Shown: positions 863 to 54,153 of the stretch, in pieces
Numbering within the stretch: the stretch's first letter is position 1
Layout: each line of letters starts with the position of its first letter
DNA from: Methanomassiliicoccales archaeon
Lineage (GTDB): Archaea > Thermoplasmatota > Thermoplasmata > Methanomassiliicoccales > UBA472
Direction of reading: 5' to 3'
NCBI GenBank assembly: GCA_013415865.1
Contig: CP058896.1
Span: 971,957 to 1,035,956 of the forward strand
DNA length: 64,000 bases
Made by a program: the position numbers and the translations under genes
Notes under the pieces: generated by a model
What the model was told of the DNA's origin: nothing
Database searches by the model: none
What the model saw: the letters and a program-made list of their open reading frames with translations, nothing else

Positions 863-3800
863 CGCAAATCCTCCAGCTGAAGGCGCATGGCGACCCCAAG
901 CGATAGCAGCTCATCGAGGAGCAGTTTGAACGCATAGGACGTCTGCACCAGGTGCACGTTCGTGTTGTTTCCGCATACAGGGCAGCGGAGCGCCCCTCTT
1001 CGGTCCAATATCGCTATATGGCCGCAGTTGGGGTTGCCGCATACATATTGATAGGTACCATCGGACTCGTCGAGAAGCCGGTCCTTTATGACCATGGCGG
1101 CACCATGGCCTATCAGGCAGTCACGCTCCATCTCACCGAACCTGAGACCGCCCTGTCTGGAGCGGCCTTCTGTCGGTTGCCTCGTGAGTATCTGCACAGG
1201 CCCGCGGGACCTGACGTGCATCTTCCCTGAGACCATGTGATGGAGCTTCTGGTAATAGATCACGCCCATGAATATGTCGGCCTCTATCTTCCTTCCTGTC
1301 TGGCCATCGTACATGACCTCTCTTCCGGAGTGCATGAAGCCGGCCCTGACCAAGGACTCCCTGATCGCCTCCTCCTTCTCTCCGCTGAACGGGGTGCCAT
1401 CGATGGTCCTCGCCTCCGCACAGCCGACCTTTCCACCGATCATCTCAAGTATGTGCGCCACGGTCATACGGGACGGTATACCGTGCGGGTTGACGACCAG
1501 GTCGGGAGTGAGCCCTTCTGCTGTAAAGGGCATGTCCTCTGCAGGTTGGATCAGACCGACGACCCCTTTCTGCCCATGCCTTGAGGCGAACTTGTCGCCC
1601 AGCTCTGGAATGCGCTCGTCCCTCACCTTCACCTTGACGAGCCTGGAGCCGTTCTCGGACTCGGTCAGCATGACCGAGTCGACCCATCCGGTCTCGCCGC
1701 CGCGGCAGGTGACCGATGTCTCCCTGCGCTTCTGAACGGAAAGGAAGTCACCGACATCCTCCTCAAGGAACCTCGGCGGCGAGGTCTTCCCTATCAGCAC
1801 ATCGCCGGCATTGACCGCTATCTCAGGTGAGATCAGACCGTCGTCAGGGTCAAGGTTGACATATGACTGGTCCTGCCTTGCGCCACGGACGTCCGGCTGG
1901 GGGATCTCGAAATGGTCCTCCTGTCCCCCTGGGTATCTGCGTTCCTCGGCCCTGTATGTTCTCATGAATGTGGACCTGCCGAGGCCGCGCTCGACGCTCG
2001 CCTTGTTGAGGATCAATGCGTCCTCCATGTTGAAACCATGATAGGACAGGACGGCCACGACAAAGTTCTGCCCTGCGGGCCTCTTGTTGAACGCAACGAA
2101 GTCCATCGTCTTCGTCTGGACCAACGGCTTCTGCGGATAATGCATGATGTGCCCACGGGTGTCCGGCCTCATACGGTAGTTGGAGGCGGCCAGGCCCAAC
2201 GATTGCTTCGCCATCCCTGCCCCCATGGTGACACGCGGTGACGAGTTATGCTCTGGGTATGGCACCAGTCCGGAGCAGACCCCGAGTATGCACATCGGAT
2301 CTACCTCCATGTGGGTGTGCTCCTTGGTGATCAAAAGCTTGGATGAGATCATCCCTCCGCAATGCCTGCATTTGAGCTGGGCATCCTTGTCCGCCGTGCC
2401 TGGGTTCATCCAATCAAGGTCCATAGGTGATAATGCACGCCCACAATGGTCACATCTCTCAGGGACCTCATACGGAGATACGGCGATGAACGCGTCCTCT
2501 TCCTCCTCCGCATCGATCCATTCTATGACGCCCTCGCGGACGAGGTCGTTCCAGCGGAGCTTGCCCTCGCGGATCTCCTCAATATGCCTCCTGGTAAGGG
2601 CGATCTTCCCATCATTGACAACGATGAGGCTCCTCCGGAGACGCCCCTCATCGCAGTTGATTATGACCTCGTCCATCTCCTCATCATAACGGACGTTTAT
2701 CTCATGTGAGAGGAGCCCTGACCTGCGCCTCTGGCGCATCTCGTTGATGAGGTACTTTGCCCGGTCATGGACCCCCTTCAGGTCCCCATTTACATAGACC
2801 CGGGTGCCCGCCTTCTGCTGGCCTCTCACCTCTTTTACCCCAAGGTCCTTCAGCAGGTATGTGACGTCCTCCTCACGGAACCCTTCTGAGACGTCGATGA
2901 TAAGCGCGGCATTCTTGACCAGACCGCAGTTCTGCCCCTCGGGGGTCTCGTTGGGGCATAGACGGCCCCACTGGGTGGGATGTAGGTCACGCGCCTCGAA
3001 GTGTGGCTGGCTCCTGGTCAAGGAAGACGTAATACGCCTGAGGTGGGAGAGCGTGGACATGTTCGAGGTCCTGTCCAGCAGCTGGCTCACACCTGCACGA
3101 CCACCGACCCAATTGCCGGTCGCCAGGGCGTGCAGGAGACGGTGTGACAAAAGGTCTGGCCTGATTGCGCTCCCTATCCGAAGGTCCTTCTTCCTTGCAT
3201 AGGACCTCTCCAGCTGGTACTTCAGGTCTTTCATGAGGTTTGTGAAGGCGACGCGGAAGAGGTCCTCCATCAGGTCGCCTGCCAGCTTCAGCCTCTTGTT
3301 GGCATAATGGTCCTTGTCATCCTCGTTCCTCATGTTCAATGAAAGCTCAAGCACGGACCTTGCGATGCGGCCGAGGAATATCGCCTTCTTCATGCGGTCA
3401 TCGGGCGTATCGCCAAGGTGCGGGAGCAATGAGCGGTCGATGATGGACTCGACCTTCTTGACGCGGTATTCCTTTGCCTGCCCGGTAGCGAACTTGCGTT
3501 CCAGGTAGGCGATGGCGTCGTTCGTGGTGAAAATACCGTTGGGGGGGTAGACCTTCTTATCATGGATCTCCTCGATGTTAGCGTAAACGATGTTGCTCAT
3601 CCTCGGATCGGACGCGATGGCCTCGAATATCTCCTGGTCGTTCTCCATGCCTAAAGCCTTCATCAGTGCGACGAGGGGTATCTGGCCAGATGCCGCCGGG
3701 ACGGTGACCATAAGCACCCCATCCCGCTTCTTCTCGACAAGCGTCAGGGCTCGGTGCCCTTCCTTCTGCGAGAACACCTTAGCTACTTCCAGCTTCGTGC

Positions 3801-16539: not shown

Positions 16540-16731
16540 TCAGTCAGATGTGAACAATTCCTCGACCCTGACCTTGAACAGCCTTGCTATCCTAATGGCC
16601 AATTTCAAAGAAGGATCGGAGCGTTCATTCTCGATCGCGATTATCCGTTGCCTTGTGACCCCCACCTTTTTCGCCAGCTCTTCCTGGGTTATGTTCGTCA
16701 TCGCCCTGTACATTCTTATCTTATTTTTCAT
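16540..16731 (-). CDS. Small XRE/Cro-C1-type helix-turn-helix transcriptional regulator (63 aa)
   Basis: ORF track. The HTH TQEELAKKVGVTRQRIIAIENER is typical of the short XRE family. It is transcribed divergently from ftsZ-b across the AT-rich region. Confidence 0.85.
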   Translation of the reverse strand: MKNKIRMYRAMTNITQEELAKKVGVTRQRIIAIENERSDPSLKLAIRIARLFKVRVEELFTSD

Positions 16732-16766
16732 GTCAGCCCAGAAGGAGATGATTGTGATATTAAATT

Positions 16767-16798
16767 AACATTTTGTTAATTATTATATACAAAATGTT
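16767..16798. promoter_or_regulatory. Perfect 10-bp inverted repeat AACATTTTGT-N12-ACAAAATGTT around a TATA-like core (candidate operator/promoter of the XRE gene)
   Basis: Read directly: arms at 16767..16776 and 16789..16798, with spacer TAATTATTATAT. On the reverse strand the spacer reads as a TATA box about 50 nt upstream of the XRE ATG. Confidence 0.5.
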
Positions 16799-16811
16799 TA
16801 TCACAATAAAC

Positions 16812-16837
16812 ATAATGTTAATTATTATATACATTAT
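16812..16837. promoter_or_regulatory. Second inverted repeat ATAATGT-N12-ACATTAT with the identical TAATTATTATAT core
   Basis: Arms at 16812..16818 and 16831..16837. The 18-nt TGTTAATTATTATATACA is perfectly repeated at 16774..16791 and 16816..16833, a 42-bp period. Confidence 0.45.
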
Positions 16838-46462: not shown

Positions 46463-46744
46463 ATGCGGTTTCTTGGGAATGTCCAAGAAGTGAGTTTTGA
46501 TGGCAAGCTTATCGTTCGCGGTTCCTTCGCCCCACAGTCTCATTCCAGAGTTGTGGACAACAGACAGAGGCCTGTGGGCAAGGTCGCGAGGGTCTTCGGG
46601 CCAGTAGAAGCACCTTACGTCACTGTGGAGCCAACAGGCGGATCTTCGCTGCTCTCCGCCATAGGGAAGCAGCTATATGTGGAGGAGGTCGGAACAACTG
46701 CCAAAACCAAGGGAAGGGACAGACGAGATAGAAAGATGTCCTGA
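46463..46744 (+). CDS. gar1: H/ACA RNP protein Gar1
   Basis: ORF track (93 aa). Contains [17 protein letters not shown]...[26 protein letters not shown] and a basic tail. Confidence 0.8.
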
Positions 46745-47630
46745 GTGCAACAGCGGTCACCTGGTCAGGGACTATGAGAGAGGTGAGTTGATCTGCGAGG
46801 AGTGCGGCCTGGTCATAGACGACCAGTTCATCGACCTTGGTCCTGAGTGGAGGGCTTTCGATGTCGAGCAGGGCGAGAAGCGGGCCCGCACCGGTGCCCC
46901 CATGACATATACCATACACGACAAGGGGCTATCGACCGAGATCTCCTGGAAGAACAAGGACTCCTACGGAAAGAGCATCCCGACAAGGAACCGCGCGCAG
47001 CTCTACCGTCTCCGCAAGTGGCAGAGAAGGATCCGCGTGTCCAACGCCACCGAGAGGAACCTTGCGTTCGCCCTGAGCGAGCTGGACAGGATGGCCTCCG
47101 CCATGGGCCTCCCGCGGAACGTGAGGGAGACCGCCGCCATGGTCTATAGGAAAGCGGTCAACAAGAACCTCATAAGAGGAAGGAGCATCGAGGGTGTCGT
47201 TGCCGCATCGCTCTACGCCGCGTGCAGGCAGTGCAACGTCCCAAGGACCCTCGATGAGGTCGCAAACTCCTCAAGGGTAGGGAGAAAGGAGATTGGGCGC
47301 ACGTACCGTTTCATGACGAGGGAATTGAAGCTCAAGCTCATGCCCACCCGCCCACAGGACTATGTCCAGAGGTTCTGCTCCGAACTGAAACTGAGCGGAG
47401 AGGTCCAGGCCAAGGCCGCGGACATACTGAAGGACGCGGCAAAAAAAGAGCTGACATCTGGACGAGGCCCTACGGGGGTTGCGGCCGCTGCCATCTACAT
47501 CGCCTCGATATTGTGCAATGAGCGCAGGACGCAGCGCGAGGTAGCGGACATAGCCGGGGTGACGGAGGTCACCATCCGTAACCGTTACAAGGAGCTGACG
47601 GAGAAGCTGGGGATAGAGATCCAGCTCTGA
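46677..47630 (+). CDS. tfb: Transcription initiation factor TFB
   Basis: ORF track (317 aa). Zinc ribbon [25 protein letters not shown]-reader/linker and two cyclin folds. The only in-frame start is ATG 46677, which gives a 68-nt overlap with gar1. Confidence 0.93.
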
Positions 47631-47726: not shown

Positions 47727-48713
47727 ATGGACAAGAAATTCCTATTGTTGAGGCCCTTGGCCGTTTGGATGATATTTGCTGGACTGCTCACCCTGATAAC
47801 TACGGTGGCTGTCACCTTCATCTTCGGGGTCCTCAGCTCTATTGTGGGTTTCATATCGCTCCTGTTCCTTGTCTTCCTCGCGGCCTATGAGATGGCGACC
47901 TTCCGTTCCATCTGGATAGCCCAGGTGGGGGAATGGGCCAACATAATCAAGGCCTTGGGCGTGAGCGTGGTCGTCAGGGCGGTCTTATTGTCTTTGACCT
48001 TCTCAGCATACGGCGATGGCTTCACCGGGAGCGACCGGGTGCTCCTCGATGCGCTCTTCCTTCTCAACGTCGCTTCGATCCTGATAGAGGCTGGAGGATT
48101 GGCATTCATATTCATGAAGAAACAATACTTCCTCCCTTCCCAAGAGGAGATAGATGCGGTCATGCGCCGCCTCAGGGCGGTTGGCACTACCACGGTCGCC
48201 GAATGCCCTACCTGCAGACAGTTGGTCGAAGCGGATTGGCGCTGCTGTCCCACCTGCGGGACTGGCCTCCCGAAGTTCTGTGCGTCCTGCAAGGCCGAGG
48301 TAGGGGGCGAAGATGTAAAATGCCCCAAGTGCGGGGCAGATGTCGTTCCGACAGAGGCCATCGAGAGCCTCATCAGGACGATGAAGGAGACGGCCGAACA
48401 GCCGGCCATGCCGGAAACGAGGTCGGTCCGTTACGCGAGATATGCCGAGGCGCTGCTGAAGGGAGGCCGTGTGGAGGAGGCGATCGAGGCCTACAGGCAG
48501 GCCATCCACTACACCAAGTTCGTAAGGAAACAGACGAACTTCCTCGTCAAGATGGCCACCATCTACAAGAACACTGGAAAGCAGAAGGAGGCCGCCGAGC
48601 TGTTGAATGCGGCGATCGAGCTTGACTCTGAGGACATCGCAGGTGCCAGAAAGGCATTGGAGGACCTTATGGCCCCTGTTGCCGGGGACGGGACGAAGAC
48701 CGTCAAGGCCTGA
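47727..48713 (+). CDS. Membrane protein with cytoplasmic double zinc ribbon and TPR-like C-terminus
   Basis: ORF track 47718..48713 (GTG). I prefer ATG 47727 with a GAGGTG 7 nt upstream. It has about 4 TM helices, then CPTCRQ...CCPTCG and CASCKA...CPKCG, then a helical repeat tail. Confidence 0.6.
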   Translation: MDKKFLLLRPLAVWMIFAGLLTLITTVAVTFIFGVLSSIVGFISLLFLVFLAAYEMATFRSIWIAQVGEWANIIKALGVSVVVRAVLLSLTFSAYGDGFTGSDRVLLDALFLLNVASILIEAGGLAFIFMKKQYFLPSQEEIDAVMRRLRAVGTTTVAECPTCRQLVEADWRCCPTCGTGLPKFCASCKAEVGGEDVKCPKCGADVVPTEAIESLIRTMKETAEQPAMPETRSVRYARYAEALLKGGRVEEAIEAYRQAIHYTKFVRKQTNFLVKMATIYKNTGKQKEAAELLNAAIELDSEDIAGARKALEDLMAPVAGDGTKTVKA

Positions 48714-49758
48714 CCCGCTTCAGCTTTGCATATTGCACCCTGTCTTCTCCAACCCGCCCGAAAAGTACCTCTTTTTTGACCCCGTGGGCCAGACGGATGG
48801 CCCTCGATACCTCGGCCCAGATGGTCACATAGTCCTCAGGTACCGCGTGAACAAGATATTTCGAGTGGTGATTTCCTGGATCGCCCTCGTAGACGCGGAA
48901 ATGGGTCCCATACTTGAACCCTGTCTTTACCACCAGGCCTCTGGACCTTAGGTCCGTGAAGGCCTTTAACCTCATATCGAAATCTGGCTGCACTGCCCTG
49001 GCCCTCTTGTTGAACGCTATCTCCCTGATGTTCCTACCAGACCTGCTGGAACGGACGGTGAGCCTTCCCAAGGACTGAAGATGGGCGGCCTCTATCAACG
49101 AGAGCTGGAGGAATCTTCCGACCTTCTTTCCATAGAACCCCTCCTTTATTAGGGCGTCCGCCTCGGCCTCGTCGATGACGAGCACGCTGTCCTCTACCAG
49201 AATCCCCTTTGCGTCCTCGATCATCGGTTCTTTCTCAAGCTCCCCATGAGGGTCGGCCCTTTCCGCCTCATAATACGTTATGTCGCCCTCCTCGTCGACG
49301 ACGGCCAGAAGCAGCTCCTTCCTTGTCCGTTCGGATATTTCTGCCTGCGCTAACATATCCACGATGCTAAACGAGGATCTTTCAGACACTGCGAGCACCC
49401 ACGCCTTTGTTTGGGATGTCGTCGGGGTCCCGCCCCTTGGGAATATCCTGAAATCGAAATCCCCCCCATCAAGCTTGACGATATACCCCCGCTGTCGGAG
49501 GTCCCGATAGACCAGGAAGCGCGTGTGGAAATCCTGCCTGCTCCCTACGCCGGCATGGACGAGCTCTTGCAGGCCTATCTCCTTTCCATCTGAGAACACC
49601 TTTAACCGGTCACTTTCTGTAAGATAGATGGCCTCCATTATGTCGAGCTCCAGGCTCCCACCCCGCTGCGGATATCCATAATAACCGCGGTTGTAGATCT
49701 GGCTCGCCTCGGACTGGTCCTCGATGATCACAAAGTCGCCACGGAGTTCGCCTGGCAT
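48703..49758 (-). CDS. endA: tRNA-splicing endonuclease EndA, two-domain (alpha'2 homodimer-type) form
   Basis: ORF track (351 aa). The C-terminal unit keeps the catalytic Tyr/His/Lys context (FRVYEG, HSKYLVHAV, GVKKEV). The N-terminal unit is a degenerate copy (FRIFPRG, KAWVLAV). Confidence 0.85.
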   Translation of the reverse strand: MPGELRGDFVIIEDQSEASQIYNRGYYGYPQRGGSLELDIMEAIYLTESDRLKVFSDGKEIGLQELVHAGVGSRQDFHTRFLVYRDLRQRGYIVKLDGGDFDFRIFPRGGTPTTSQTKAWVLAVSERSSFSIVDMLAQAEISERTRKELLLAVVDEEGDITYYEAERADPHGELEKEPMIEDAKGILVEDSVLVIDEAEADALIKEGFYGKKVGRFLQLSLIEAAHLQSLGRLTVRSSRSGRNIREIAFNKRARAVQPDFDMRLKAFTDLRSRGLVVKTGFKYGTHFRVYEGDPGNHHSKYLVHAVPEDYVTIWAEVSRAIRLAHGVKKEVLFGRVGEDRVQYAKLKRVRP

Positions 49759-49873
49759 CAGACCTTAAGAGGGATGCCGTAGTTAAATATTGTCTGGGGC
49801 TTGGTCTTCGATGATCGATCGTGTCCCGGACCGGGTAGAACGAGAATATTAAATAAGAGGATGTACAAGTAAT

Positions 49874-49884
49874 GTATACAACTT
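49874..49884 (+). promoter_or_regulatory. Shared promoter/operator core GTATACAACTT (copy 1, upstream of the wHTH regulator gene)
   Basis: The identical 11-mer ends exactly 26 nt before ATG 49910. It is followed by nnnGTTGnnATC, as in copy 2. A TATA-like aatattaaataa lies at 49845..49856. Confidence 0.55.
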
Positions 49885-49909
49885 GTAGTTGATATCTAAG
49901 GTGGCCCCT

Positions 49910-50575
49910 ATGGACGAGCTCGACATGCTGCTCTCGGTGATAGAGAACCCTACGAGAAGGAAGATACTGGAGGCGCTGATGCGTGAACCGCATTATCCAC
50001 TTCAGCTCTCCAGGGAGCTGGGCCTAAGCCAGCAAGGGATAATGAAGCACCTCAAGGTGTTGGAGGACTACGACCTTGTCAGGTCTTACAGCGAGGAGAG
50101 CGACCAGGGGGGCCCATCAAGGAAGATCTATGTTCCGACCACCGGGTTCACGATCACGGTGGACATCGGGCCAGGTCTTTTCAACACAGAGCTCGTGAAA
50201 AGGGTCCTTGAGATGGACGATGTCAATGAAAAGGAGATGTCCAGTTCAGATCTGAAAGAATTCAAGGACAAGCTCATGCAGGCGAGGGGCAAGATCAGGG
50301 ACATCGACCGGGAACTGGAGGCGCTTGCGGAGAGGAGGGCCCGCCTGATACAGGAGAAGGAAAAGAGCCTGAACGACGCGTACAATCTGATCGAGGCGCT
50401 TATCGATGATTACCATGAAAGGCGCGTTCTTTATGCCTATATGCAAAGACCTGAGCTTGACGAGAAGGACCTGGCCCGTACGCTGGGCCTTAGGGACGAG
50501 TATGTGAAGGATACTCTAGAGAGATATGCCGGGGGTGTAAAAGATGACCGAAGGGGGCAGCGACAGGAGCGATAA
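49910..50575 (+). CDS. Winged-helix (ArsR/Phr-like) regulator with long C-terminal coiled coil; candidate heat-shock regulator
   Basis: ORF track 49889..50575 (TTG). I prefer ATG 49910 (MDELDMLLSVIENPTRRKILEALMREPHYPLQLSRELGLSQQGIMKHLKVLEDYDLV), followed by a coiled-coil region. Confidence 0.75.
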   Translation: MDELDMLLSVIENPTRRKILEALMREPHYPLQLSRELGLSQQGIMKHLKVLEDYDLVRSYSEESDQGGPSRKIYVPTTGFTITVDIGPGLFNTELVKRVLEMDDVNEKEMSSSDLKEFKDKLMQARGKIRDIDRELEALAERRARLIQEKEKSLNDAYNLIEALIDDYHERRVLYAYMQRPELDEKDLARTLGLRDEYVKDTLERYAGGVKDDRRGQRQER

Positions 50576-50849
50576 ATACGTCGAGGAACTGAAAAAGTTG
50601 CTGGATGATGCTCAGAAAGACTTTGAGAAGGGGATCAAGGAGATCGACCGATTAGGAAAGATCGTCTTTGAAGATGTCAGAAAGGGGATCAAGGAGACAA
50701 AGATGGATGTAAGAGAGACCACCGGAAAGGTTAGGGAAGACCTTGAAAAGGAGCTCCCGGGCATCAAGGCCGAGGTGAAAGAGTTCCAGAGAAAGATGGA
50801 GAGGCATCTGCGGGACCTTGAGGAGGAGCTTAAAAGGGTGTTAAAGTAA
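50544..50849 (+). CDS. Small charged coiled-coil protein (101 aa)
   Basis: ORF track. Lys/Glu-rich heptad-like sequence. It overlaps the upstream gene's end by 32 nt. Confidence 0.5.
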   Translation: MTEGGSDRSDKYVEELKKLLDDAQKDFEKGIKEIDRLGKIVFEDVRKGIKETKMDVRETTGKVREDLEKELPGIKAEVKEFQRKMERHLRDLEEELKRVLK

Positions 50850-50888
50850 AATTTAAATAGAAGCGCAAACTATACTATACATTGTAAA

Positions 50889-50899
50889 GTATACAACTT
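50889..50899 (+). promoter_or_regulatory. Shared promoter/operator core GTATACAACTT (copy 2, upstream of hsp20)
   Basis: The identical 11-mer ends exactly 26 nt before ATG 50925. ACAAC-N5-GTTGT dyad. A TATA-like atttaaatag lies at 50851..50860. Confidence 0.55.
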
Positions 50900-50924
50900 A
50901 AGGTTGTAATCAGGAGGGATCGAC

Positions 50925-51392
50925 ATGGACGCGAAAAGAAGGACAGAACTGGTCCCGTTCCAGTGGGGACCTATGAGCATCTTCGAGGAGCTTGAGAGGT
51001 TCATAAATGACAGGACCATGGACCTTGACAGGTTCTGGTTCCCCCAGGTCGTCGCGGGAGGGTACAGGGTACCTGCCATCGACCTTAGAGAGGAAGGGGA
51101 CAGGTATGTGCTCACAGCAGACCTGCCTGGTATGTCCAAGGAGGACGTGAACATCGAGATCGGCGATGGCGTTGTGGAGATCACCGCCAAGAAGGAGACC
51201 TCCAAGGATGAGGAGAAGGAGGGCTACATCCGCAAGGAGCGCGGGTCCATGTACTACCACCGGAGGCTGGCGATGCCCGAGAACGTCGACACGGAGGGCA
51301 TCTCAGCAAAGCTTAACAACGGGGTGTTGGAGCTGACGCTCCCGAAGGTTAAGGAAGCGGAGAGGGCCAAGAGGAAGGTCGACATCCAATGA
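50925..51392 (+). CDS. hsp20: Small heat-shock protein (Hsp20/alpha-crystallin)
   Basis: ORF track (155 aa). ACD core: PAIDLREEGDRYVLTADLPGMSKEDVNIEI...GVLELTLPK. Confidence 0.92.
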   Translation: MDAKRRTELVPFQWGPMSIFEELERFINDRTMDLDRFWFPQVVAGGYRVPAIDLREEGDRYVLTADLPGMSKEDVNIEIGDGVVEITAKKETSKDEEKEGYIRKERGSMYYHRRLAMPENVDTEGISAKLNNGVLELTLPKVKEAERAKRKVDIQ

Positions 51393-51460
51393 TGTCGGCC
51401 ATCAAAACCCTTTATTGATGAACGATAGGATGATAAATTGAAGATGGACAAGGAAAAGAT

Positions 51461-53644
51461 ATGGTAGCTACTGACAAAGTGCTAAAGGTCGCTGAGGCTA
51501 AGCCGAGGGACGCTGGCAAGGGGATCGCAAGGATAGACCCGGAGATAATGGAGATATTGGGCATACAACCCGGTGACGTTATTCAGATAGACGGCAAGAA
51601 GAAGACCGTTGCGGTCGTCTGGCCAGGCTACTCGGAGGACGAGAACCGCGGACTTATACGTATCGATGGACATATAAGGCGGAACGCCAACGTCGGTCTG
51701 GACGACAAGGTGGCCATAAGGAAGATCGTCGTTAAGAGCGCGCAGAAGATGACCTTCGCCCCTTTGGAGGAGATGAAGATAATGGGGGGCGAGGAATATC
51801 TGGGCCAGGCCCTGGAGGGCAGGGTCGTCACGAGAGGCGACGTGGTCGAGCTCAACGTCATGGGAAGGCGGATCGACCTGGCCGTGGTCTCATATCATCC
51901 AGCTGCGGATGCTGCGATGATCCAGCGTGATACGGAGATAAAGATCAGCGACAAGCCCGCTAAGGACACGCTGTCGAAGATACCGAAGGTCACGTACGAG
52001 GACATAGGTGGCCTGGGCGACGAGGTGAAGAAGGTCCGAGAGATGATCGAGCTGCCGCTGAGGCACCCAGAGCTGTTCGAGAGGCTGGGCGTCGAAGCCC
52101 CCAAGGGCGTTCTGCTGCATGGTCCTCCTGGGACAGGAAAGACGCTGTTGGCCAAGGCCGTCGCTGGCGAGACCAACGCCAATTTCGTCTCGATCGGCGG
52201 ACCGGAGATCATGAGCAAGTTCTATGGCGAGTCCGAGGAGCGCCTCAGGGAGATATTCAAGCAGGCGGAGGAGAACGCGCCGACCATCATATTCATCGAT
52301 GAGATAGACTCGATCGCCCCGAAGAGGGACGAGGTCACCGGTGAGACCGAGCGGCGCATCGTGGCGCAGCTGCTCGCGCTGATGGACGGTCTGGAGTCCC
52401 GTGGCAAGGTAGTTGTCATAGGGGCCACGAACCGCCCGAACGCGCTGGACCCGGCGCTCAGGAGGCCGGGCCGCTTCGACAGGGAGATAGAGATCAGCAT
52501 ACCGAACAAGGAAGGCAGGCTCGAGATCCTGCAGATCCACACGCGGGGCATGCCTCTGGACGAGGATGTTGACCTGGCGAGGCTCGCCGCCTTGACGCAT
52601 GGGTATGCGGGTGCCGACCTGCAAGCGCTGGCCAAGGAGGCGGCGATGCGCTCCCTGAGACGGGTGCTTCCGGACCTGGACCTGGAGATGGACTCGATAC
52701 CCGCCGAGGTGCTCAACAAGCTGATCGTCAAGAGGCAGGACTTCTTCGATGCCCTGAGGGAGATGCAGCCCTCGAGCCTGAGGGAGGTCCTGATCGAGTC
52801 CCCGGACGTCAAATGGGATGACATTGGCGGCCTGGAGGACGTAAAAAAGGAGCTGAAGGAGGCGGTCGAATGGCCCCTGAAGTACAACCTGGTCTTCGAG
52901 CGCATGGACGCAAGACCTCCGAAGGGGATACTGCTGTACGGGCCTCCTGGTACCGGAAAGACCATGCTGGCAAAGGCCGTTGCAACGGAGGCCGAGGCGA
53001 ACTTCATCAACGTGAAGGGGCCAGAGTTCCTGAGCAAGTGGGTCGGAGAGTCGGAGAAGGCGGTCAGGGAGACCTTCAGGAAGGCACGTCAGGCCGCGCC
53101 GTGCATAATATTCATGGACGAGATCGATTCGATCGCCCCTGTCAGGGGAGGGAGCTCGGACTCTCACGTCACCGAGAGGGTGATATCTCAGCTCCTGACG
53201 GAGATGGACGGGCTGGAGTCGCTACATAACGTCGTGATCATCGCGGCGACGAACCGGCCAGACATGATCGACCCGGCCTTACTTAGGCCAGGAAGGTTCG
53301 ACAGGCTCGTGTCTGTAGGCGTCCCGGACCTGGCGGCCAGGAAGGACATACTCAGGGTGCATACGAGGAAGAGGCCTCTTGACCCTGGCGTGGACCTGAA
53401 CGAGCTTGCCGAGAAGATGGACGGATACACCGGTGCGGACATAGCGGCCGTCGTGAACGAGGCGGTCATGATGGCCATAAGGGAGTTCGTGGCGGAGGGC
53501 GGCGAGCTGACGAAGGAGCGTGTGGGCGAGATGAGGCTGATGAAGAAGCACTTCGACTCGGCGCTGGGGCATTACAAGCCCCGGACCAGGTCTGAAGTGT
53601 CGGAGTTCAACAAGCTCATCAAGGACTTTGAGTACGTGAGGTGA
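51461..53644 (+). CDS. cdc48: AAA+ ATPase Cdc48/VCP/VAT
   Basis: ORF track (727 aa). N-domain, two Walker A (GPPGTGKT twice) and Walker B ([16 protein letters not shown]) modules. Confidence 0.95.
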
Positions 53645-54153
53645 TGATGATGGCGAAGATATCATTTGACATCGAGGACCCCTTCTCGGAATTCGACCGG
53701 ATGTTCGAGGAGATGAGGAGGCGCATGGATGAGATGATCCGAGGCGCCGTTCCGATGTATGATGATGAGGAGCCTGTCTTCGTCTCCTACCGGAGGATCG
53801 AGGGGGCCGGCCGTGAACCCATTGAGGAGGTGAGGAGCAGCGTCCCGATGAGAAAGGCCTTGCCCGTCCACGATGAAGATGCTTTGATCGACGTAAGGGA
53901 GAAGGACGGAAAGGTGACGGTCCTGGTCGAGCTGCCTGGGATCGCGAAGGAGGATATCGACCTGGAGGTCGTCGACAAGAGCCTTGTCATCGATGTGGAC
54001 GTGCCACAGAAAAGGTTCTCAAAGGAGGTGGAGCTGCCCTGTGCCGTGAAGGCGTCCTCGACGAGGGCAAGCTATAGGAACGGCGTCCTAGAGGTGGTGC
54101 TCGATAAGAATGTTCCACGCAAACGTAAGGGGACAAAGGTCAAGGTCGAGTGA
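53644..54153 (+). CDS. Hsp20/alpha-crystallin-domain protein (divergent second copy)
   Basis: ORF track 53641..54153. ATG 53644 overlaps the cdc48 stop (TGATG). ACD-like LIDVREKDGKVTVLVELPGIAKEDIDLEV...NGVLEVVLDK. Confidence 0.8.
   Translation: MMMAKISFDIEDPFSEFDRMFEEMRRRMDEMIRGAVPMYDDEEPVFVSYRRIEGAGREPIEEVRSSVPMRKALPVHDEDALIDVREKDGKVTVLVELPGIAKEDIDLEVVDKSLVIDVDVPQKRFSKEVELPCAVKASSTRASYRNGVLEVVLDKNVPRKRKGTKVKVE

Follow-up and report, generated by a model that had tools for sequence, protein, structure and literature searches.

Organisation of the locus

The stretch of DNA studied here (the window, 64,000 nt) corresponds to positions 971957-1035956 of CP058896.1, the single contig that makes up the 1.82 Mb genome (52% G+C) of a Methanomassiliicoccales archaeon. 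It contains a cluster of genes encoding a regulator of the Phr/HSR1 family, a charged coiled-coil protein, the small heat-shock protein Hsp20, the AAA+ ATPase Cdc48 and a second Hsp20 paralogue (Table 1). The start of the last gene, hsp20b, overlaps the stop codon of cdc48, and according to the list of open reading frames (ORFs) the overlap comprises 4 nt. The order regulator, coiled-coil ORF, hsp20 and cdc48 is syntenic in all 30 relatives' loci fetched. Two near-palindromic boxes, one in the promoter of the regulator gene and another in that of hsp20, are predicted, with considerable confidence, to be operators of the adjacent Phr/HSR1-family repressor.

Table 1. Genes and predicted regulatory elements of the regulator-hsp20-cdc48 locus (window positions unless marked as genome positions; PWM, position weight matrix)
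Feature	Position	Strand	Basis or remark
tfb	46677-47630	+	ORF list and family search
endA	48703-49758	-	ORF list and family search
TATA-like box of the regulator promoter, ATTAAATA	49848-49855	+	starts 26 nt before operator 1
Predicted operator 1, regulator's own promoter, GTATACAAC-TTGTA-GTTGATATC	49874-49896	+	PWM 27.0 bits, genome rank 2
Phr/HSR1-family regulator, 221 aa	49910-50575	+	Pfam, PDB, NCBIfam, AlphaFold/Foldseek
Charged coiled-coil ORF, 101 aa	50544-50849	+	overlaps the regulator 3' end by 32 nt
hsp20 core promoter (chaperone promoter module), TATA TTTAAATA (50852-50859) then GAAGCGCAAACTAT	50852-50873	+	
Chaperone promoter module, copies at two thermosome genes	genome 3299-3322 and 1255680-1255703		
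Predicted operator 2, hsp20 promoter / 5' leader, GTATACAAC-TTAAG-GTTGTAATC	50889-50911	+	PWM 29.5 bits, genome rank 1
hsp20, small heat-shock protein, 155 aa	50925-51392	+	Pfam HSP20, E 1.3e-24
Hairpin around the hsp20 stop codon, GGTCGACATC-CAAT-GATGTCGGCC	51377-51400	+	stem kept in relatives
cdc48, AAA+ ATPase, 727 aa	51461-53644	+	TIGR01243 CDC48, 1066 bits
hsp20b, second hsp20 paralogue	53641-54153	+	Pfam HSP20 and NCBIfam archaeal Hsp20

The shared block and the operator model

The initial annotation of this DNA drew attention to an 11-nt sequence, GTATACAACTT, shared by the two promoters. Both copies were confirmed (49874-49884 and 50889-50899), each ending 26 nt upstream of an ATG-GAC start (49910 and 50925, respectively), and the window contains no further copy with one mismatch or fewer. 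The similarity extends beyond the 11-mer, as had been suggested, with 22 of 28 bases identical in register (GTAAnGTATACAACTTnnnGTTGnnATC). The two short dyads described earlier are both real; they are alternative views of a single inverted repeat, which has a 5-nt spacer and reads CAAC-N5-GTTG at site 1, TACAAC-N5-GTTGTA at site 2. The operator can be described as a 23-bp near-palindrome, GTWNWYAAC-N5-GTTRWNWWS, consisting of two 9-bp half-sites with an invariant AAC-N5-GTT core. The 11-mer covers the left half-site and two bases of the spacer, and the continuation reported as "GTTGnnATC" is the right half-site. The TATA-like elements that had been placed upstream of both sites are also present. 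The equal spacing to the start codons holds within the window, but not as a conserved feature of the hsp20 sites: the distance from the 23-mer to the hsp20 start varies from 13 to 32 nt in nearly all relatives, while the distance to the regulator start is tight, mostly 9-11 nt.

The chance expectation of a shared 11-mer, roughly estimated before as 1 in 1000, agrees with the simulation, where 269 of 200,000 shuffles of two 60-nt regions shared an 11-mer at any offset (1.3e-3); in register, this occurred in 2 of 200,000 shuffles (1e-5). The whole window, however, contains 1,375 same-strand pairs of identical 11-mers. A shared 11-mer alone thus proves little, and conservation constitutes the decisive evidence.

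Conservation in relatives and genome-wide search

An orthologous site was found upstream of the regulator gene in 29 of 30 related loci, the thirtieth having a 6-nt spacer, and upstream of hsp20 in all 29 relatives possessing this gene. The AAC...GTT inverted repeat with a 5-nt spacer is present in 57 of the relatives' 59 promoters, whereas about 0.03 per 150-nt region would be expected by chance.

The simple pattern ACAAC-N5-GTTG proved uninformative for a genome search (13 matches versus 11 for the reversed control), and a PWM was used instead. The matrix (23.4 bits) was trained on 55 sites from relatives, the host genome being left out. The genome search proposed in the initial annotation, made with this matrix, singled out the two window sites as genome ranks 1 and 2. 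The third match (16.3 bits, genome position 1735786) is located inside the coding sequence of a 547-aa protein and scores within the range of the best matches in ten order-2 Markov shuffles of the genome (15.3-20.0 bits); it was therefore rejected as a further regulon member. With just two sites above the background, the regulon defined by the motif comprises two promoters. No operator of its own was found for cdc48, either in the 68-nt spacer preceding it here or in relatives that have hsp20.

A second sample, comprising 80 further Methanomassiliicoccales loci (about 420 kb), contained the site upstream of the regulator in 69 loci. In this sample, PWM matches above 12 bits are confined to the regions immediately preceding the regulator, hsp20 or cdc48 and to the remainder of the regulator-cdc48 interval. 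Where hsp20 is absent (L034, L070, L074 and L100), the operator directly precedes cdc48, and in Methanomethylophilaceae the regulator is followed directly by cdc48 behind a single operator. The question of whether the motif is conserved upstream of orthologous genes, raised in the initial annotation as a possible refutation, is thus answered in favour of the operators, since about 100 Methanomassiliicoccales loci have the site in front of the regulator and hsp20.

Conservation is not restricted to the order. A homologue of the regulator was found in 40 of the 41 genomes searched in the order and in 84 of the 151 sampled Thermoplasmatota genomes. In other families of this phylum, about 17 of 20 loci have the AAC-N5-GTT palindrome upstream of the regulator or of an operon formed by hsp20 and the regulator.

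Several arrangements found among the relatives deserve separate mention. Loci L119-L123, from other orders of the same class, have hsp20 followed by the regulator, and the operator is located before hsp20, about 600 nt upstream of the regulator gene, forming one operon with one operator. In loci labelled Methanomassiliicoccus (L077-L095 and L114; positions about 3500-3660), an ORF of about 53 aa replaces hsp20 after the operator. This ORF, which is conserved (MNPEVP-ERTPVP-RRWKPL-EPDRR...), is located roughly 230 nt upstream of cdc48, and a match to the operator PWM is present there. In L102 (2453-2503), and also in L047, L072, L073 and L076, operators overlap with a 14-bp period, adjacent operators sharing one half-site (right in the first, left in the second). 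Half-site arrays are thereby suggested for some relatives, possibly with cooperative binding.

The regulator protein

The N-terminus of the regulator is an ArsR-type winged helix (residues 12-59; Pfam HTH_20, E 7e-13, and HTH_5, E 1e-10). Sequence and fold were compared with Phr, the family member with a solved structure. Phr of Pyrococcus furiosus (PDB 2P4W) is the best match among solved structures by sequence (E 7.4e-18, residues 2-172), and the best NCBIfam model is NF053602 Phr_regulator (E 8e-17). The score of 61 bits against the 320-bit cut-off of this "exception"-type model indicates a distant family member. The AlphaFold model (pLDDT, predicted local distance difference test, 85) has a long beta wing on its winged helix, a helix of 53 residues (112-164) and a small C-terminal helical bundle. 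The top Foldseek matches of this model are the chains 2p4w_B and 2p4w_A (E 1e-9 over about 202 columns); the template modelling score is just 0.41-0.45 because the orientation of the domains differs from that in 2P4W. The long helix fits the dimerisation helix of the family, so that dimerisation is predicted.

The Phr architecture previously proposed for the adjacent winged-helix and coiled-coil protein is therefore borne out by both sequence and fold, and by its sequence and modelled structure the protein is a full-length, though distant, member of the Phr/HSR1 family. The set of a regulator, hsp20 and an AAA+ ATPase (Cdc48), to which the initial annotation referred, is that described for Phr and HSR1 (PMC9133787, PMC5852551). 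The family corresponds to arCOG01684 and is reported in most euryarchaea (PMC5852551).

Position of the predicted operators and the proposed mechanism

The distance from the start of the TATA box to the start of the operator is 26 nt for operator 1 and 37 nt for operator 2. In relatives, it is mostly 24-33 nt for the regulator and 36-41 nt for hsp20. With the centre of an archaeal TATA box near -26/-27 relative to the transcription start, operator 1 would span about -4 to +19 and operator 2 about +7 to +29, and transcription of the regulator gene is predicted to start near 49878. Both sites are located downstream of the TATA box, as would suit a repressor. These predicted positions would agree with that of the Phr site, which lies over or after the transcription start and from which Phr prevents the recruitment of RNA polymerase, TBP and TFB not being displaced (PMC9133787, PMC10746257).

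The reading of the shared block as a candidate heat-shock operator is well supported by a Phr-homologous regulator, a conserved palindrome downstream of the TATA box and an HSR1-like core. The site upstream of the regulator's own gene is a signature of autoregulation, and the two half-sites around AAC-N5-GTT suit a winged-helix homodimer. In an unstressed cell, a dimer of the regulator would sit just downstream of TBP/TFB and would block the recruitment of RNA polymerase or promoter escape. At operator 1, this would result in negative autoregulation of the transcript carrying the regulator and the coiled-coil ORF; operator 2 would control the hsp20-cdc48-hsp20b transcript. Heat or another proteotoxic stress would release the dimer from the DNA and so permit transcription of both the chaperone operon and the regulator gene. 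Binding by the regulator, repression and its relief by stress are deduced here from the genome sequence.

Could the site belong to a regulator other than the adjacent Phr homologue, adjacency reflecting co-regulation only? Three lineages with no match to the regulator (genus g21 and families f13 and f18; genomes 97-99% complete) were used for a co-absence test. In g21, which belongs to the same order (three genomes, 98-99% complete), no operator was found at the cdc48-hsp20 operon, the best PWM score being 7 bits, and the genome-wide matches to the operator pattern were at the control level. No operator was found at the cdc48 loci examined in f13 and f18 (four genomes), and in the three lineages together the PWM scores outside coding sequences at cdc48/hsp20 loci were at most 9 bits. 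In a control genome that does have the regulator (G030), perfect sites are located upstream of the regulator gene and close to a thermosome gene. Three lineages lacking both elements, set against about a hundred loci possessing both, link the regulator and the site. Besides, the site is always located upstream of the gene of the Phr homologue itself, and the motif published for HSR1, a homologue of the regulator, has the same core. A different regulator is therefore quite improbable.

It is equally improbable that the Phr homologue, bound to the site, activates transcription or has a dual role instead of simply repressing. Such a role would suit a perfect site 11 nt upstream of a thermosome TATA box in one relative (L139), a position more typical of activation, but here and in about 100 relatives the sites are located downstream of the TATA box, over or just after the predicted transcription start, as for Phr.

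Instead of a protein-binding site in DNA, the palindrome might be a hairpin-forming element of the 5' leader RNAs, such as an RNA thermometer. A 6-bp stem could form at operator 2, which is probably included in the transcript; operator 1, however, straddles the predicted start, so just a part of it would be present in RNA, and the Shine-Dalgarno sequence is outside the stem. A comparison of 123 distinct sites showed the complementarity of the six outer arm positions to be no higher than expected if the columns varied independently (z from -0.4 to 1.9), so the arms are conserved as sequence and not as pairs. Conservation of each half-site at the sequence level is expected for a dimeric DNA-binding protein, whereas a structured RNA would show paired changes. 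This lack of covariation leaves the hairpin very little credit, and it was discarded.

Finally, chance likeness, or a generic core-promoter sequence of two A+T-rich spacers, draws on the abundance of identical 11-mer pairs in the window, but it is effectively refuted by the rarity of in-register sharing in shuffles, the ranks given by an independently trained PWM, the shuffled genomes and conservation across the order and the phylum, including the 80 further loci, and retains a negligible probability.

Some points weigh against repression by the Phr homologue as the function of the two boxes. The transcription starts are deduced from the TATA position alone, the regulator scores far below the strict NCBIfam cut-off for Phr, and the co-absence test covers just three lineages. 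The organisms are apparently not thermophiles, so the physiological signal may not be heat. The membership of cdc48 in the regulon depends on read-through, since this gene lacks a separate operator and is preceded, after hsp20, by a conserved hairpin.

Transcription of cdc48 and the hairpin after hsp20

In every lineage examined, cdc48 is located downstream of an operator-controlled promoter. It is likeliest that here it is reached by read-through from the hsp20 promoter, possibly attenuated. Of 39 related loci, 38 also have a stem of 6 bp or more around the hsp20 stop codon, the sequences of the arms differing between them; the mean z value against a shuffled 3' arm is -2.1. In the window, the 5' arm is formed by the last hsp20 codons. 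The hairpin may serve as a terminator, an attenuator or a 3'-end stabiliser setting the hsp20:cdc48 ratio.

The chaperone promoter module

The TATA box of hsp20 is a part of a longer element, TATATAGAAGCNCWAA / TTWTAWATAGAAGCNCWAA, which begins at the TATA box, ends shortly before the start site and is found across the order. The hsp20 promoter reads TTTAAATAGAAGCGCAAACTA, and the module includes a GAAGCNCWAA block. The pattern TAWATAGAAG has four matches in the genome, three of which precede hsp20 and the two main thermosome genes. A matrix trained on the hsp20 promoters of relatives placed hsp20 first, thermosome-2 second and thermosome-1 tenth in the host genome. The module, also recorded for loci L156-L185, is kept in the hsp20 promoters of 24 relatives. 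It hardly varies before thermosome-1, where 28 of 29 relatives have a promoter reading TTATATAGAAGCACTAAAATACCG and lacking a Phr operator. Within the host genome, the two main thermosome genes are the sole carriers of the module besides hsp20; they have no Phr operator, and the regulator's own promoter has no module.

A Methanomethylophilaceae genus in which no match to Phr was found (L148-L150; G172, G153 and G180) retains the TATATAGAAG promoter before cdc48-hsp20. The place of the operator is occupied there, about 100 nt before cdc48, by a GC-rich leader of roughly 95 nt with long-range complementarity (GTCCGAGCGGAAGCCGCCC...GGGCGGCTAGGAC). A comparison of this leader with Rfam gave no credible match; the leader could be an RNA-level substitute for Phr control.

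The module may add a further level of regulation, or it may be no more than a core promoter under strong selection. A paralogue of TFB as its reader was ruled out, because the host genome has a single TFB. It is conceivable, though somewhat doubtful, that the hsp20 promoter is composite, the module being recognised by a second reader of chaperone promoters and Phr forming an added layer on hsp20-cdc48 only. The heat-shock core promoter of Haloferax cct1 has chaperone-specific sequences flanking the TATA box. TATA-flanking sequences specific to chaperone genes are also described for Halobacterium hsp5 (PMC2396416). The likeness to these haloarchaeal promoters consists in such a flanking sequence, which here precedes hsp20 and two thermosome genes. 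In haloarchaea, however, the effect is attributed to particular TFB/TBP paralogues, whereas the present genome has one TFB and the module was recognised in sequence comparisons. This chaperone-specific core-promoter module is a less expected by-product of the analysis.

In the Methanomethylophilaceae locus L139 (G030:C2:64020-64042), a perfect operator is located 11 nt upstream of the thermosome promoter TATATAGAAGG. It is on the other side of the TATA box and near the thermosome gene, which indicates that the regulon there includes or abuts the thermosome.

Comparison with known systems

The closest known counterpart of the predicted operators is the site of HSR1 (AF1298) of Archaeoglobus fulgidus, with the published motif CTAAC-N5-GTTAG (PMC9133787). 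HSR1 is assigned to the same regulator family (arCOG01684, PMC5852551) and has the targets that are predicted here, hsp20 and a Cdc48-type AAA+ ATPase adjoining the regulator gene; autoregulation is common to both systems, being a prediction in the present one. The AAC-N5-GTT core and the 5-nt spacer are the same, while the outer bases here are ACAAC/GTTGW and not CTAAC/GTTAG, and the half-site is longer, GTATACAAC instead of CTAAC. The hsr1 operon is resembled by the Methanomethylophilaceae relatives, where the regulator and cdc48 stand behind one operator. The locus described here, in contrast, comprises two transcription units with two operators (regulator and coiled-coil ORF; hsp20-cdc48-hsp20b), and its host is apparently not a hyperthermophile.

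Phr of P. furiosus and Thermococcales (PF1790) is the best match in sequence and fold, at about 25% identity, and has the same build, a winged helix and a long dimerising helix. As is predicted for the present regulator, it represses its own gene, hsp20 and an AAA+ ATPase gene from a site overlapping or following the start. The Phr site, 29 bp in length, contains TTTA, TGGTAA and AAAA blocks (PMC9133787). The Phr regulon includes ten or more genes, hsp20 and the AAA+ gene each having a site of their own, whereas here two sites were found in the genome and none at cdc48.

Comparative predictions of Phr/HSR1-type regulation are available in RegPrecise (mentioned in PMC10746257), and the literature search found no paper describing a Phr/HSR1 circuit for Methanomassiliicoccales. 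The predicted circuit is a clear new example of a known archaeal switch, not a new kind of switch. It extends the Phr/HSR1 heat-shock circuit, experimentally characterised in two hyperthermophiles only, to an order that apparently includes rumen and other host-associated methanogens. The analysis also provides a precise 23-bp operator model and a minimal predicted regulon of two promoters. Conservation of the AAC-N5-GTT core across Thermoplasmatota supports the view that this regulation is ancestral in Euryarchaeota (PMC5852551). The pair of operator and promoter could serve as a stress-inducible expression switch in this group, which has no genetic tools.

Other features of the window

The 101-aa coiled-coil ORF gave no family match above the cut-off in Pfam or NCBIfam and no structure match in the PDB. 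It is detectable downstream of the regulator in many relatives and is probably co-transcribed with the regulator gene, which would make it a member of the autoregulated transcript.

A weak match to the operator PWM (12.8 bits) is located in an A+T-rich spacer between two ftsZ-like ORFs (window positions about 16700-16830, genome positions 988660-988790). This spacer contains two copies of GTTAATTATTATATACA.

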